Positions 21,001-27,000 of a stretch of 64,000 nt of DNA are shown here, one piece after another. The stretch is taken from contig CBEUCH010000006.1 of assembly GCA_965541585.1 (NCBI GenBank), forward strand, positions 96,001 through 160,000, in the 5' to 3' direction. Each line of letters opens with the position of its first letter. Position 1 is the first letter of the stretch. A program made the position numbers. This stretch comes from an uncultured bacterium (lineage in GTDB: Bacteria; Zixibacteria; MSB-5A5; UBA10806).

Positions 21001-24000
21001 CATAGCGGCAGCGTTTACGGTAGACAAGACTGTGACCAGGTTCGATTGTTCAGACTCATGCTCAGGTGGGCTGGCAAGGGGTGGCAACTCCTCCACCAGA
21101 GGAACCTTGCAATCGGCGCACTCGGTGAATCCCTCTCTGTATTCTACTCTGCATTCGGGACAAAACATAATTCGCTCCGCCACGTTCAAATCATCGCGGC
21201 TCCATGCCGCATCATGAATAGATGAAGTATAGTAGAGGTGGTAGCGGATCGCAATATCGATTTGAGACTGGTGGTAGCTTTTCCGGTGGATAGGTTTGAG
21301 CCGTGGGCGGTCATTCTGCAGATCCGTATGGACAACAAGTTGTGACACGCGGACTGGGGATGTCGGATCTGACGATCCGAAATCATATATTTAGAGAATA
21401 CTCTCGGCGCTACCTGAGGTCAAAATAAACCAGGGGGCGGACCATCAGTGCGTCCCAGTAGGCGTCCCCATCGGAATCGACATCGATAACGATATACTCC
21501 AGTTTGCGGTTGGCACCCCGGGGTGTAATAATTTCCCTTTTGATGAGGCCGTTCTCATCATGATCGAGCGGGTGCCAGTCCATGAGCACTGTGATATCGG
21601 ATACCGTGTAACCCAGAAGTCTTAGCTGGACTGTACCTCTGGTGTAATCGTCCGAGAATTTTGGCAGACCGTATCCGAGGACAATTGAGTCGATCTCGGC
21701 ATTGGCCGGCAGGCCGAGGGGGACCGTAATAGATATATTGCGCCGATCGCCGACAACCTTTTCCGGCCCGTGAATATATATCCAGATCTTGCCGTCATAT
21801 TCCAGTTTCCTGGCGGCAGTCTCCCAGTATTTATGGTATGGCCCCGCGAAATACCCCTCGAATAATCGTCCGCCCCGGAATTTCAGCTTGGTGTCCTTCT
21901 CCTCCTTCAGGGACCAGACCAATCCGTCGGACGATTCAACCTCGTACTTCCTGATGAACTCCGAAGTCCCCAGATGAAGAACCCTGACCCCGGTTATCAG
22001 GGCGGGATCGGTTAAGGGCGGCTTTGGCTTCGGCTTTGGTTTGGGCTTCGGCTTGGGTTTAGGCTTCGGTTTCTTCTTTGGCTTTGGGGGTGGCGGAGGC
22101 GGTGGTGGTTTCGTTTTGAAAACGACCAGATCGACCGATACGGTGGCTCCCGGTTCCACTTCGCCGATTATCTTGACGGTGGAATCGCTGTCGAATTTCG
22201 CCATCAACGAATAATCCCCCGGAGGTATATCCTCGAACATGAAAAATCCAAGAGTGTCGGTCAATGTCGATGTCTGCTGGGGTATTGTGAAAACGGCTGC
22301 GCCGGCCAGCGGCTGGCCCTCGGCGTTACTCACCTGTCCTTTTATGGTAGCCGGTTTCTTGGCACAACCACTCCAGATCAACGCTGATATGGCGGCTAAT
22401 ATAATTAAGAATCTTAAGATCTTCATCTCCCTCCCTCCGATCTTAAGCCAGAAGCAAGATCACCGAATCCTTCGGTCTGTCCTTAAGAGGTCTTTATTCT
22501 CAATATCCTACTATAGCTTAATCGACAGCTATCCTCAAGTTATTTAATGAAAAAGGATGGGGCAGCTTCGTATTTGCCTGAGAAAACCACAGTGGTCAGA
22601 CCTGCCTGACAGCGACCATACATTAGTTCCACGCATGATTAGATCGATTCCTGAAGAAATCGATTGTCTTACAATTCATCGTCTGCGGCAGGAACCGGTG
22701 ATCTTGTACAGGCAACGGAAAATATATATTTCCATTCGGGATAGAATATTATATCTTAGCCGCATGTTTTATTGCCGGAATCCACGCCGGTGTTGTTTTT
22801 TTGCCGGATCCTCCAGCAGCTTAGATCAAAGTTGTTTTATTAATTTATAAATGGGTTATGATTTTTTGGCTCGCAGGACATTCTTCCACCTTGACAGAAC
22901 CGATCGGCCTGCGGCAAGTTCCAGTTGTGAAAAATAAACTCATATCTGAGCAATAAAGGAATGTCCAATTTAAGAAAAGGAGATTCTATGGCAGGAAGAC
23001 TTACGGCATTGCTCTTGCTTTTGGTTTTCGCTTTCGGGGCGGTTAGAGCTCAGGAGGCGATGCCGGACACTACCGGACCTCCGCTTCCGGCTCCACCGAC
23101 AAACGTCCGCGTGTCAGACAAACCTGATGACACCGGCCACGGTGTGATAGTCGGATGGGATCTTTCCGCTGACGACGGCGCCGGAGCTGATAATGTGACA
23201 GCCTACGAGGTCTATCGCGCCGATGCTCCTGATGGTGAATATATGCTGATGGGGGTCGGTATTAAGGGCAGCGGGGAGTATGAAGATGACGACGATGCGG
23301 AGTTCAAAAACGGCGATCCCAATCCGGGATACATTGCGACGGGGAAAACGTACTACTACAAGATACGAGCCATGGCGACGGGAGGTTTCTTTTCAGAATT
23401 CTCCGAGCCCGCATCAGGGCATGCCGAAGAGAACTGGTTCCATACAGGGAAGGTCCCGATCCTCGTTGGCGTAATTATCTTCTGGGGAGTAGTCGTTTAT
23501 TTCATCTTCAAAGCACGGGGTGGTAAGGAGTTTTATGTTCGTCCCCTCGCCGGGATAAACGCCGTGGATGACGCTATAGGGCGCGCTACCGAGATGGGTC
23601 GCCCGATAATGTTTGTTCTCGGCACCGGTACTGCCGGCGATCTGGCGACCATTGCCGGCTTTACGATCCTCTCCAGAGTGGCAAAGATGACCGCTGAATA
23701 CCAGACACAGGTCTTAGTACCTGTCAATGATCCGGTCATGATGGCTGTCGCACAGGAGACGGTACGCACCGCCTACCTCGAGGCTGGCCGTCCCGATACC
23801 TATAACGCAGATAATATCACCTACGAAACCGCCATGCAATTCCCGTATGTGGCGGCGGTCTGCGGCATCATGCTGAGAGAGAGGCCGGCAACCAATTTCT
23901 ACATGGGGGTTTTTCATGCCGAGTCCCTGATCTTAGCCGAGACCGGAAATATCGCCGGATCGATACAGATATCTGGTACCGATCAGATCTCCCAGCTACC

Positions 24001-27000
24001 GTTCTTGATCGCCGCCACCGATTACACGTTGATAGGCGAGGAGCTTTACGCCGCCAGTGCCTATCTATCAAAGGAACCGATCCTGGTCGGAACTCTGAAA
24101 GCGCAGGACTGGGCCAAGGCGGCATTGATGGCGATCTTGTTTCTGGGGGCGCTTCTGATTACCTTCGCAATTCCTTTTATAAAAGACATGGTAACCGTTA
24201 ACCTTTAGGTGTAAAGATAGAAGATGAAAAAACAGATTCCAATATATTTTGTCCTGGTCTCCGGTATCGTGATGATAATCCAGTTCTTCGTACCATCTGA
24301 GGAATCGCAATGGCTTTTCACCTACGCCAACGATTGGGTTATCGTCGTGGGGATCCTGGCTCTGCCTCTGGGTATCTACGGTCTGCTCAGGTCAGAATTC
24401 AAGAAGCTGAAAAATCCCAAGGAAGCTTTTTACGCGGGCGTTCTTCTTTTCGGCTATTTCATCATGGTGGCTACGGGTTGGAAAAGAGAATGGCTTGAAT
24501 ACGGCAGTCTCCATATGGATCTTTTCACCAACATCCTGATACCGATTCAGGCGACGATTTTTTCGCTTTTGGCATTCTACATAGCCAGTGCGGCTTACAG
24601 GGCGTTCCGGGCCCGAACCATGCTGGCGACCATCCTCCTGGTGACTGCATTTATCGTCATGCTGCGGCTGATACCACTTGGTCCATTCTCAGACATCAAC
24701 CAGATCGGGGTTAGCTGGATATTATCGGTACCGAATATGGCGGCCAAGCGCGCAATCGCCATAGGTGTGGGGTTGGGCGCTATCGCCACCTGCATAAAAA
24801 TCATCCTGGGTATCGAACGAACCTACATGGGACACGATTAAAGGAGGCCGCCAATGACATTCTGGGATAAACTGATGAACATAGACCGACGATGGATTTA
24901 CCTCTGTATCGCCATCGTTGTTATAATTCCGGCAATTGTTTCCTTCAAAGTGCCCGTCTCCACCACGCCTGAAGTAAAAATGGTGTTTGATTTTATCGAC
25001 GAGATGCAACCGGGAGAGTATTTTTATCTGGGTATTGATTATGATCCGTCGGCCCTGGCGGAACTCGATCCCATGACCTACGCTATTCTGAACCAGGCCT
25101 TTTCCAAAGATCTGAAAGTCATAATCGGATGTCTTTCGCAGTTTGGCGTCGGTATGGCCGAAGCGCGGCTGGCCGAGATGAGCGCGAAATACGATAAACA
25201 TTCGGGGATCGATTACTGTTTTCTGGGTTACCGTCCATATCCGGCCATCGTGATACTGACCATGGGTGTGGATTTCAGAGTGACTTTTCCTCTGGATTAC
25301 TACGGCGTGCCACTTGATTCGCTGCCGGTTATGCAGGGGATAAGAAACCTTATGGACGTTAAGGGCGTGGTCGATATTACCGCCGGCAACGTGGCCGATT
25401 TCTGGATTATCTACGGCAATGGACGATTCGGATTCCCGCTGGCGATCGGCATGACGGGAGTTATGAGCGCCGATTATTACCAGTACCTGCAATCGGGCCA
25501 GATTTTCGGATTGATCCCGGGTATTAAGGGAGCCGCCGAATACGAGACTCTTTCCGGCTTCGAGACTACCGGATTGACCTCCATGCCATACCAGACACTG
25601 ACCCATGCGGTCATTCTCCTTTTCATAATCATCTCAAACATTGGTTACTTCGCCACTCGTGGCAAGAAGGGTAAATAGGAGGACGCTATGACGACAGTAG
25701 AGCTTTTATGGAACACTCTGGCGGCGCTATTGACCCTTTTCGTCTTCTCCTTTCTTTATAAGGATAATCCTTTCTACAAGTTCGCCGAGAGATTGGTCGC
25801 AGGAGTCGCCGCGGGATACTGGACGATGTTGCTTTATCATACGAATTTCACAGACAAAGTGGTTCTAACCATGCAGAACGGGCAATGGGCATATATAATT
25901 CCTATACTCCTCGGGGTCGGGATGTGGACCAGGTTTTCCAAGAAATGGTCCTGGATTTCGAGATATTCCATCGCCTTCTACATAGGGATATCGACCGGTG
26001 TTTCAGTAACTGTTTATATGAACACCTGGATTCTGAAGCAGATCGAGGCCACCATGATACCGCTCAATAGCATCACCAACATATTGGTGGTTGTTTTGGT
26101 GCTGTGCTCTTTATTCTACTTTTTCTTCTCTAAGGCTCATACCGGCACCTTCGGCCTCATATCCAAAATTGGCATCTATACGCTGATGATCGGATTCGGC
26201 GCCGGGTTTGGGCTAACGGTGATGGGACGTATTGCGCTGCTTGCACAGAGAGTAATATTCCTACAAGAGTACTTATCAGCGCTATTCGGAGCAGGTTAGA
26301 ATGCTATAGAAAATCGATTTTCGGTTCTGTCGGGCATCTTGGATTCGTTCCGGGATGCCTTTTTCTTAAGAATCCCATCGATGGCGATCGGGGCAGGTTT
26401 CGGGAAGTTCATCCAACCGCTAATCCTGGCGGATCGAAATGTTAACCATATGGGAAACAGTCCATTAAAATAAAAAATATTATTTGGAACAAGAGTGCCG
26501 AATATTTATATATATGTCTGGGATGTTCTCAAATCGGTACTTCAGATCGTATCTGCTAGCCCTGCTTGCTTTAATTTTTTCATCGGGTTGCGTCTATTAC
26601 AACACCTTCTTCGTGGCCAGGAAGAAATTCAAAGAGGCTGAAAAGAACCAGGCGCAAAATGCGGAGAACAGAAGGAATCAGCAAATCCCGCCGAGTCAGC
26701 CCCGTGGGGCAGGTAGAAAACAAGGGAAAGACAATGTTGGAGGGCGCGGCGGCAGTTCCCCGGGCTTATTCACAACCAAGGTCTCCCCGCAGGTGAGAAT
26801 CCTATACGAGGACGCTATCAAGAAGGCCAGCAAGGTCCTGAGATTCCACCCGGATTCGAAATGGGTCGATGATGCGCTCTGGCTGATCGGCAAATCTTAT
26901 TACAACATGGGCGATTATCGTCAGGCCGATAGAAAATTCAAAGAGCTGGTAACCAACCACCCGGAATCGAAATTTGCAGAAGATTCCTTTTACCATAAAG

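Follow-up and report, generated by a model that had tools for sequence, protein, structure and literature searches.

The 64-kb stretch of DNA analysed here (the window) carries at positions 22988-26299 a compact same-strand operon of four open reading frames, in the order A (a DUF6754 protein), B, C and D, and raises the question of what four membrane proteins kept together in this way might do, and whether they act by themselves. Comparison with other genomes indicates that the cassette is not self-contained and travels with two further proteins, an ATPase (E) and a barrel-sandwich/KOW-like protein (F).

The four-gene cassette and its distribution

The ORFs of the window are separated by 15 (A/B), 12 (B/C) and 9 nt (C/D). 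The start of A given in the survey's finding, 22988, was retained, as an ATG stands there with AAGGAG 5 nt upstream; a further ATG at 22961 has no correctly spaced Shine-Dalgarno sequence, and the likely start at 22988 gives a protein of 406 amino acids. Residue numbers for A are counted from 22961 (415 amino acids). The location of a hairpin 3' of D fits the end of an operon; the region contains six terminator-like sites versus a shuffle mean of 4.3, so that the terminator scan by itself proves little. The following features were assigned:

22977..22982, + strand: Shine-Dalgarno sequence AAGGAG, 5 nt 5' of ATG 22988 (sequence read)
22988..24208 (alternatively from 22961), + strand: gene A, DUF6754 protein (PF20539), 406 amino acids from 22988
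22988..23050, + strand: signal peptide of A (hydrophobic helix at residues 11-28, end V-R-A; cleavage site by eye)
23078..23440, + strand: fn3 ectodomain of A, periplasmic, variable (residues ~40-160; profile and fold match)
23444..23518, + strand: transmembrane (TM) helix 1 of A (residues 162-186; AF2, hydropathy)
23528..24085, + strand: cytoplasmic alpha/beta domain of A, the DUF6754 core (residues 190-375, six parallel strands)
24095..24163, + strand: TM helix 2 of A (residues 379-401; AF2, hydropathy)
24224..24841, + strand: gene B, 6-TM protein, 205 amino acids (ORF, hydropathy)
24854..25678, + strand: gene C, TM-alpha/beta domain-Gly-rich segment-TM, 274 amino acids (ORF, hydropathy, alignment)
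24944..25498, + strand: alpha/beta domain of C, predicted periplasmic (residues 31-215; alignment, flank charges)
25688..26299, + strand: gene D, polytopic membrane protein, 203 amino acids (ORF, family-average hydropathy)
~26332..26366, + strand: intrinsic-terminator-like hairpin and T run (12 pairs; 33 nt past the stop of D)

When A-D were searched against the genome by tblastn, exactly four copies of each were found, always in the order A-B-C-D, as the survey had reported: C6:118961-122296 (the window copy), C14:7693-11631, C14:13817-17384 and C26:~1-3044, the last being cut by the contig end. The other copies share 46-49% (A), 37-45% (B), 33-47% (C) and 33-41% (D) identity with the window copy. 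Their description as old isoforms is supported by the position of the window cassette in a (starred) clade spanning six families of the phylum. The gene order, which had earlier been inferred from the spacing of one gene, was counted for A genes with at least 2.6 kb of downstream sequence (80 loci, more than 10 phyla): 98 of 100 are followed by B-C-D, and one of the remaining two is itself a C-D fusion.

DUF6754 was present in all 61 sampled genomes of the phylum, with 2-6 matches each, and in none of 14 control genomes. The cassette cannot be called phylum-defining, as it had been, since the four-gene set also occurs outside the Zixibacteria, namely in Eisenbacteria, Poribacteria, WOR-3, Stahlbacteria, Fermentibacteria, Cloacimonadota and Edwardsbacteria, and further in a Bacillota MAG and in Planctomycetota, where 42 of 151 sampled genomes carry DUF6754. 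Among 94 ORFs in 12 loci, no conserved flanking gene or hint of a cargo was found.

Architecture of the membrane proteins

Only the first gene product has a family model, in agreement with the survey; B, C and D gave no Pfam or NCBIfam match. Protein A is a full-length member of DUF6754 (PF20539; 367.9 bits at a gathering cut-off of 27 bits, E = 2.9e-110, profile positions 2-255 of 257), the match spanning residues 156-409 and covering TM1, the cytoplasmic domain and TM2. Hydropathy reproduced the earlier counts of a signal peptide and two TM helices for A, six for B and two for C. The four to five helices previously given for D do not agree with its family-average profile of six peaks and a weak seventh; D probably has about six hydrophobic segments, with the N-terminus outside.

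The ectodomain of A was recognised as Fn3 by a PDB profile match (titin Fn3, E = 4.1e-23) and by structural alignment with 4bq6_A (VIA; Z 13.1, rmsd 2.3, 102 aligned); the Pfam fn3 model itself had no match on the window copy, and short A forms lacking the ectodomain also occur. Net charges of the flanks in the A family (n = 51) are +0.67 and +4.22 around TM1, and +1.59 and +0.08 around TM2. AF2 modelled A with a pLDDT of 81.9 and the cytoplasmic domain alone with a pLDDT of 83.4 and a pTM of 0.73. This domain is the most conserved part of the cassette, with a mean pairwise identity of 65% versus 30% for the ectodomain of A, 39% for the domain of C, 47% for B and 48% for D, and across phyla it is 51-77% identical to the window copy. 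Such strong conservation would also fit an enzyme or ligand site. Structural comparison returned generic Rossmann-like matches only (best VIA Z 10.5), and a cofactor motif is not conserved, G-x-G-x-x-[GA] being found in 14 of 51 rows; window-type copies of A have G-T-G-T-A-G directly after strand 1.

Protein B is predicted to have both termini in the cytoplasm and has an invariant cytoplasmic loop (S-A-x-Y-R-A-F-R-A-R); Pfam, NCBIfam and PDB searches gave no relative. The loop between TM3 and TM4, predicted to lie outside, carries insertions of FG-GAP repeats or C-type domains in relatives.

The C family comprises 5,377 cluster representatives (50% identity) at E<=1e-3. The survey had interpreted C as an RCK-like gating subunit, an assignment that conflicts with its predicted topology: net flank charges in 45 homologues are +2.13/+0.18 around TM1 and +0.13/+3.33 around TM2, which by the positive-inside rule places both termini in the cytoplasm and thus the alpha/beta domain in the periplasm. 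A check for a nucleotide-binding glycine motif likewise went against this assignment. The family alignment has no conserved G-x-G-x-x-G and instead shows D-Y-D-P-x4-E-x2-P-M after the first strand, and the single G.G..[GA] match of the window copy (residue 188) is outside the conserved columns. TrkA_N had no match at E<=5 in any of the 45 members, and no other Pfam family matched among them. With a domain predicted to be periplasmic and neither glycine motif nor TrkA_N match, a nucleotide-gated ion channel is probably not what these proteins form.

The survey's view of the cassette as an unrecognised multi-subunit membrane unit gained support from rearranged relatives. C-D fusion proteins were detected (P0040, P0065, P0133 and L082; full fusions made up three of ten long C-family proteins examined), and in one Planctomycetota B a C-type domain (E = 5e-40) is inserted between TM3 and TM4. 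Together with the conserved gene order, these fusions and the C-type domain in B argue for one ABCD complex.

The partner proteins E and F

By sequence family, E is a GlmL-like ATPase of the actin/Hsp70 fold (ASKHA), encoded by a single gene at C1:128055-129929, and F is a barrel-sandwich/KOW-like protein, likewise single-copy (C10:101163-102290). Since this genome shows no linkage between E, F and the four cassettes, which are on different contigs or far apart, the link of E-F to the cassettes rests on other genomes. All 61 genomes of the phylum sample have E and 60 have F, nearly always as single copies, compared with 2-6 cassettes. At least 31 of the 61 genomes have E no more than 5 kb from a DUF6754 match, and in 55 F follows downstream of E at a distance of up to 5 kb. 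Of 10 Planctomycetota regions fetched, 5 contain six-gene operons with the order E-F-A-B-C-D, as does an anammox locus (L123). Of 151 Planctomycetota genomes, 40 had both DUF6754 and E, 2 only DUF6754, 4 only E and 105 neither; E thus occurs in 40 of 42 carriers versus 4 of 109 non-carriers, with the discordant matches mostly at contig ends, a count that overstates independence because it was made on related genomes. In other phyla, five carriers were checked, and each has a single long E.

E matches PF13941 (MutL) end to end (434.7 bits at a gathering cut-off of 27 bits, positions 1-450 of 450, E ~1.5e-130 to 5.2e-130). It remains below all three NCBIfam cut-offs, scoring 236.2 bits with GlmL (NF040745; cut-off 475), 224.8 with Or-4 (NF040744; cut-off 600) and 170.1 with TIGR01319 (cut-off 204.05), and is longer than the GlmL-type models by about 130-170 residues. 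Across 28 sequences the ASKHA phosphate motifs do not vary, and E thus looks like an active ATPase; a sequence search for relatives of solved structure found none. The match of F to RnfC_N is weak (E = 7.9e-4; 19.9 bits, under the Pfam cut-off of 25.6), and the remainder of F gave only a weak match to a KOW motif (SPT5, E = 0.09). None of A to F matched a family of the PADLOC anti-phage defence models at E<=0.01.

Possible functions and relation to known systems

The four cassettes seem to share one actin-fold ATPase and are therefore probably part of a new ATP-linked membrane machine. At about even confidence, we interpret ABCD as the inner-membrane module of a larger system in which a shared E-F pair would move cargo at the expense of ATP. 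A, B, C and D would form one complex of ~16 membrane helices, with a module-specific outer face, to which A would contribute its variable fn3 ectodomain and C its periplasmic alpha/beta domain, and an inner face provided by the nearly invariant cytoplasmic domain of A. The single E-F pair could dock on this inner face in any one of the four modules, depending on which is present, and would spend ATP on a conformational cycle, which may carry a module-specific cargo across the membrane in one direction or the other. A more specific version, which we put forward tentatively, is that ABCD and E-F constitute a new class of primary active transporter, with an ASKHA motor that would dock, via F, on the invariant cytoplasmic A domain of exchangeable modules. 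Each module would then bring its own periplasmic recognition parts, and one motor would serve four cargo-specific modules here and up to six in relatives.

Rather unlikely is an alternative in which ABCD is an inner-membrane platform whose variable ectodomains build or hold different surface or periplasmic structures, with no small cargo, and E is an assembly or scaffold ATPase like PilM, FtsA, MreB or GspL. The ectodomains do belong to protein-interaction or adhesion folds (fn3, FG-GAP in one B, a CARDB domain inserted in the alpha/beta domain of one C homologue, and, in a Bacillota MAG, a propeller of the PQQ/BamB-like kind), E gives a low-scoring hit to MreB-like_C (E = 0.0057), and M23 peptidase genes lie near 2 of 12 loci. 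However, no pilin, secretin, peptidoglycan synthase or other envelope gene conservedly adjoins these 12 loci, the system spans very different envelopes, including those of the Bacillota MAG and the Planctomycetota, forms of A can do without an ectodomain, and E is placed on the GlmL/hydantoinase branch and not on the filament-forming one.

ABCD might also be a secondary transporter or membrane enzyme in its own right, with E-F as an ATP-dependent maturation or repair factor, a possibility that we consider quite improbable. ASKHA proteins of the GlmL and reactivase types probably tend their partner enzymes in a chaperone-like manner, which suits maintenance as much as a motor role, and GlmL-type accessory proteins act on Rossmann-like partner domains. 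Closest to E are indeed accessory proteins of the GlmL and Or-4 types, A has a Rossmann-like cytoplasmic domain with invariant polar residues at strand ends, where a Rossmann-type ligand site would be expected, and one E-F pair for several modules suits a service role. Yet E scores under every NCBIfam GlmL cut-off, no B12 enzyme gene was seen among the neighbours of the cassette loci examined, A has no conserved cofactor motif, and the co-occurrence in Planctomycetota is stricter than a dispensable helper would require.

The earlier reading of a self-contained complex that translocates ions or solutes under the control of a nucleotide-binding, RCK/KTN (TrkA_N)-like gating subunit C is very improbable: the Rossmann-like alpha/beta sandwich of A and C, the glycine-rich sequence of window-type A and the matches to KTN/RCK chains (Z 8.4-9.7 for C in the survey's figures; Z 9.0-8.6 for A, among 151 chains with Z>=8) speak for it, but the fold matches are generic, Sir2 and methyltransferases outscoring KTN/RCK on A and glycosyltransferases matching at least as well, extracellular-type domains are inserted in or beside the domain of C, which is predicted to lie outside the cytoplasm and has neither a conserved nucleotide motif nor a sequence-family match, and the cassette comes with E-F.

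The DUF6754 system is large and very conserved, and it matches no characterised machine. PF20539 is a catalogue entry without function that says nothing on B to F, and a literature search found no paper on DUF6754/PF20539, PF13941, GlmL with ASKHA, or this system. GlmL/MutL is the accessory protein of coenzyme-B12 glutamate (methylaspartate) mutase. E resembles it and Or-4 in the end-to-end PF13941 match and in the ASKHA phosphate motifs, but is paired with F and membrane cassettes instead of a mutase gene, and correcting the label "glutamate mutase L" on E would tidy many genome annotations. F may be likened to peripheral subunits of the RnfC/NqrA type, which have a barrel-sandwich hybrid N-terminus, in that F, too, would serve a membrane complex as a soluble protein, but no Fe-S or flavin motifs were seen in it.

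The favoured reading of ABCD as a module driven by shared E-F finds its closest analogy, one of logic only, in ECF transporters and some ABC importers, where one ATPase is common to several membrane parts. Here, one E and one F face four cassettes (2-6 in relatives), and ABCD likewise combines a conserved cytoplasmic face with variable outer parts. The difference is that no ABC ATPase is involved and that A-D have no homology to EcfT, EcfS or ABC permeases: neither A-D nor E or F matched ABC/ECF families in Pfam or NCBIfam, and of 12 loci only two (L115, L123) have ABC ATPase genes close to the cassettes. The ASKHA fold is not known to power any transporter. If it is true that an ASKHA ATPase drives ABCD, a new energising principle would be added to membrane biology, and a system shared by all genomes sampled from this phylum and present in many uncultured phyla would offer a handle on what uncultured sediment bacteria take up or build.

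Gene order and copies of the cassette

The cassette of the window consists of four genes on one strand, of which A encodes the DUF6754 protein (PF20539, E-value 2.9e-110); B, C, and D had zero matches in Pfam and NCBIfam.

Genes of the window cassette
Gene A: 22961/22988-24208, same strand as B, C, and D; ORF, likely start ATG 22988
Gene B: 24224-24841, same strand as A, C, and D; ORF of 205 aa
Gene C: 24854-25678, same strand as A, B, and D; ORF of 274 aa
Gene D: 25688-26299, same strand as A, B, and C; ORF of 203 aa

The ATG at 22988 was taken as the start of A because it is preceded at a distance of 5 nt by AAGGAG and a signal peptide of the typical kind begins there. 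The genes are separated by 15 (A-B), 12 (B-C), and 9 nt (C-D), and a hairpin of 12 pairs with a T run is located 3' of D (26332-26360). A search of sequencing runs retrieved no RNA run with a match, and DNA runs with small shares only. Directly 3' of the cassette, 26484-29300 (+) codes for a 938-aa protein that combines numerous TPR repeats with a YfiO/BamD-like stretch and ends in a TonB_C domain; in its middle part, some 36 aa are directly repeated almost without change (read from the translation). On the 5' side, a lipoprotein-like ORF (21410-22426, -) carries a CarboxypepD_reg domain (E-value 1.9e-11) followed by a long proline/lysine-proline linker.

Four paralogous four-gene cassettes had been noted in the survey of this genome, and tblastn with A to D bore this out: each gene was found exactly four times and no more, in the order A-B-C-D at every site (C6:118961-122296, the window copy; C14:7693-11631; C14:13817-17384; and the start of contig C26), the other three cassettes showing 33-49% identity to that of the window. 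Between both C14 cassettes (C14:11762-13608) lie three small genes whose products, judged by eye, look like NfeD-like membrane, SPFH/stomatin-like, and CBS-domain proteins. In a tree of 57 concatenated cassettes (FastTree and IQ-TREE quick; starred sets identical), the window cassette pairs with one cassette from a genome of the same order (69% identity) inside an 8-row clade (100*) that covers six families of the Zixibacteria. The C14:13817 copy falls into the sister subclade, the C14:7693 copy into a different 18-row clade (100*), and the C26 copy is a weakly supported outlier near the Poribacteria. This placement substantiates the view that the copies are old isoforms. The closest relatives of some isoform clades belong to other phyla, which may reflect old duplication or gene transfer.

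The conservation of the four-gene order in other genomes, previously inferred from the spacing of a single gene, holds almost throughout. All cassettes in 20 inspected regions from 19 Zixibacteria genomes are arranged as A-B-C-D, and tandem arrays of two or three are frequent; one cassette has the form A-A-B-C-D. A scan with the DUF6754-domain alignment, restricted to one genome per species, retrieved at least 632 relatives. Among the best 80 of these loci, custom HMMs detected B, C, and D in order after 98 of the 100 A genes beyond which the contig continues for 2.6 kb or more; the two exceptions are a C-D fusion ORF and a solitary second A. According to their titles, these 80 loci belong to Zixibacteria, Eisenbacteria, Poribacteria, WOR-3, Stahlbacteria, Fermentibacteria, Aegiribacteria, Cloacimonadota, Edwardsbacteria, a Bacillota MAG, and Planctomycetota. 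Neither a conserved flanking gene nor a hint at a cargo was found among 94 ORFs neighboring the cassettes at 12 loci of other phyla.

Domain structure and predicted topology

The structure of protein A was predicted with AF2 (pLDDT 81.9).

Domains of protein A (AF2; residues counted from 22961, although the start is placed at 22988)
Residues 11-28: signal helix
Residues 47-155: fn3 sandwich
Residues 162-186: first TM helix
Residues 197-369: alpha/beta domain with six parallel strands
Residues 379-401: second TM helix

The fn3 assignment is based on a PDB profile match to titin Fn3 (E-value 4.1e-23) and a VIA alignment (Z 13.1, rmsd 2.3, 102 residues aligned); fn3 was also the sole match in a fold search with full-length A. 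When folded by itself, the DUF6754 core (pLDDT 83.4, pTM 0.73) had no Foldseek match at E ≤ 1e-3. With VIA it reached Z ≥ 8 with 151 chains, all of them generic Rossmann-like matches, led by Sir2 (Z 10.5, rmsd 3.7, 141 residues aligned) and followed by methyltransferases, glycosyltransferases, and KTN/RCK chains (Z 9.7-8.6). Queried with A, the ESM Atlas returned DUF6754 clusters only. The ectodomain of A varies: in a Bacillota MAG (L115:5309-7768) it is replaced by a PQQ/BamB-like beta-propeller, and in Cloacimonadota (L103, L104, L105, L116, and L127) and Planctomycetota (L151-L155) by a stretch 650-1050 residues long. Pfam recognized no domain in the long ectodomains of Planctomycetota (546-1312 aa) or Cloacimonadota (~950 aa). 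At L049:2542-6506 (genome G045), B-C-D is preceded by a tandem pair of short A genes (283 and 291 aa), neither of which has fn3.

Hydropathy indicates six TM spans in B and two in C, and the family average of D has six peaks and a weak seventh. Membrane orientation was deduced from the positive-inside rule.

Mean net charge of the 15-residue TM flanks, averaged over families
C family (n = 45): before TM1 +2.13; after TM1 +0.18; before TM2 +0.13; after TM2 +3.33
A family (n = 51): before TM1 +0.67; after TM1 +4.22; before TM2 +1.59; after TM2 +0.08

These charges clearly predict that the alpha/beta domain of C lies on the periplasmic side, and that A has its fn3 domain outside and its alpha/beta domain inside. 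The survey had read the cassette as most likely an ion- or solute-translocating complex gated by C as an RCK-like subunit. This role of C could not be upheld, as its domain is predicted to be periplasmic, has no conserved glycine motif, and departs from RCK/KTN in every defining feature tested. The nucleotide-binding glycine motif, a check left over from the survey, is conserved in neither protein: G-x-G-x-x-[GA] occurs in 14 of 51 A-family rows, the others having P-G-x-x-D-M-D, and at no conserved column of the C family, whose motif after strand 1 is D-Y-D-P-x4-E-x2-P-M. Window-type A carries G-T-G-T-A-G right after strand 1 (residues 221-226; 23621-23638) and an Asp after strand 2 (residue 257; 23729-23731). 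At the sequence level this is the classical dinucleotide-binding fingerprint, and the window-type isoform may be a nucleotide-binding one.

A Pfam scan of every B, C, and D family member at E ≤ 5 revealed no recurrent family, the commonest match being TMD0_ABC, found in 16 of the 45 members of the B family (best E-value 7.1e-4). PDB profile searches gave nothing for B or D and three rows at chance level for C, and the ESM Atlas nothing usable for B. With C itself as query, an exhaustive profile search recovered 5,377 cluster representatives (E ≤ 1e-3). An A-B-A'-B' pseudo-symmetry of the cassette was not supported, since hhalign detected no homology between A and C (probability 3.1%) or B and D (2.1%).

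Among ten long C-family proteins inspected, three are full C-D fusions in which an additional helix joins both parts, a further one contains the C domain in tandem, and five carry an insert in one loop (profile positions ~110-117), including a CARDB domain and HEAT repeats. In B of a Planctomycetota MAG (L128:1255-2595) a second C-type alpha/beta domain (E-value 5e-40), and in B at L060:7791-9566 an FG-GAP repeat run (E-value 5.2e-28), is inserted between TM3 and TM4, a loop predicted to be periplasmic. The C-D fusions and both insertions in B support the assembly of A to D as well as the predicted topology.

The putative partner proteins E and F

Two further proteins are encoded away from the cassettes in the studied genome. 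E, a GlmL-like ASKHA (actin-fold) ATPase, is the product of its sole PF13941 gene (C1:128055-129929, 624 aa, E-value 1.5e-130) and is 59% identical to its counterpart in an anammox locus (L123), where that counterpart is separated from A by a single gene. F, a barrel-sandwich/KOW-like protein with a single homolog in the genome (C10:101163-102290, 375 aa), is 50% identical to the product of the L123 gene between E and A. L123 and L052 each have a ~380-aa gene upstream of A; these two genes are mutually unrelated, and F corresponds to that of L123 only. The ASKHA phosphate motifs of E are invariant in 28 sequences; its scores are below all cut-offs of the GlmL-type NCBIfam models (236 vs. 475, 225 vs. 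600, and 170 vs. 204 bits). F has a weak RnfC_N barrel-sandwich match (E-value 7.9e-4) and a weak KOW match; PDB profile searches yielded just weak KOW and barrel-sandwich rows for F and none for E.

E is present in all 61 Zixibacteria genomes sampled and F in 60, almost everywhere in single copy; in the sole genome lacking F, E is situated at a contig end. In 55 of the 61 genomes, F is encoded downstream of E at a distance of no more than 5 kb, the studied genome being one of the six in which they are apart. At least 31 of the 61 have E no farther than 5 kb from a DUF6754 match (20 divergent, 11 upstream on the same strand), a lower bound because 111 of 291 A matches were compared. Five of ten inspected Planctomycetota regions contain an E-F-A-B-C-D operon. 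Of 151 evenly sampled Planctomycetota genomes, 40 had both DUF6754 and E, 2 DUF6754 only, 4 E only, and 105 neither, as counted by comparing two lists by hand among related, non-independent genomes. One long E also occurs in each of five carriers from other phyla, which were picked for their cassettes, so that its presence there is no test of absence.

Two deviating cases were encountered. One 954-aa open frame in another genome (G017:C15:47603-50014, -) matches E (E-value 1.4e-103) and part of F (E-value 1.8e-16), and seems to be a divergent E-F fusion present as a second copy. In a member of the Planctomycetota (G168:C20:254535-262435), a DUF6754 match and the adjoining E match are both interrupted by in-frame TGA or TAA codons, and C18 carries another E copy broken into two parts; the system may have decayed jointly in this genome, or else this is an assembly or genetic-code artefact.

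Putative mechanism and comparison with known systems

Mean pairwise identity among Zixibacteria cassettes is highest in the cytoplasmic domain of A (65%), followed by D (48%), B (47%), the periplasmic domain of C (39%), and the A ectodomain (30%). As a single E-F pair coexists with two to six modules whose inner face is invariant and whose outer parts are variable, the simplest reading is that E-F would form a soluble ATPase unit shared by these membrane modules. Its docking site would be the cytoplasmic domain of A, and its ATP use would power a task at the membrane that differs between modules and is most likely transport. The adhesion-type ectodomains also suggest an assembly platform as the role of A to D, and E-F may alternatively act as a pure chaperone.

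The system has no match among the PADLOC defence models. Within the searchable paper library, literature searches retrieved no paper on DUF6754, PF20539, or PF13941 and none for GlmL with ASKHA, and a broader search on GlmL and ASKHA membrane complexes gave irrelevant results only. With respect to known systems, the cassette belongs to DUF6754 by name only, C displays none of the RCK/KTN features tested, the ABCD system is neither an ABC nor an ECF transporter, and E is a member of PF13941 and not a GlmL equivalog.
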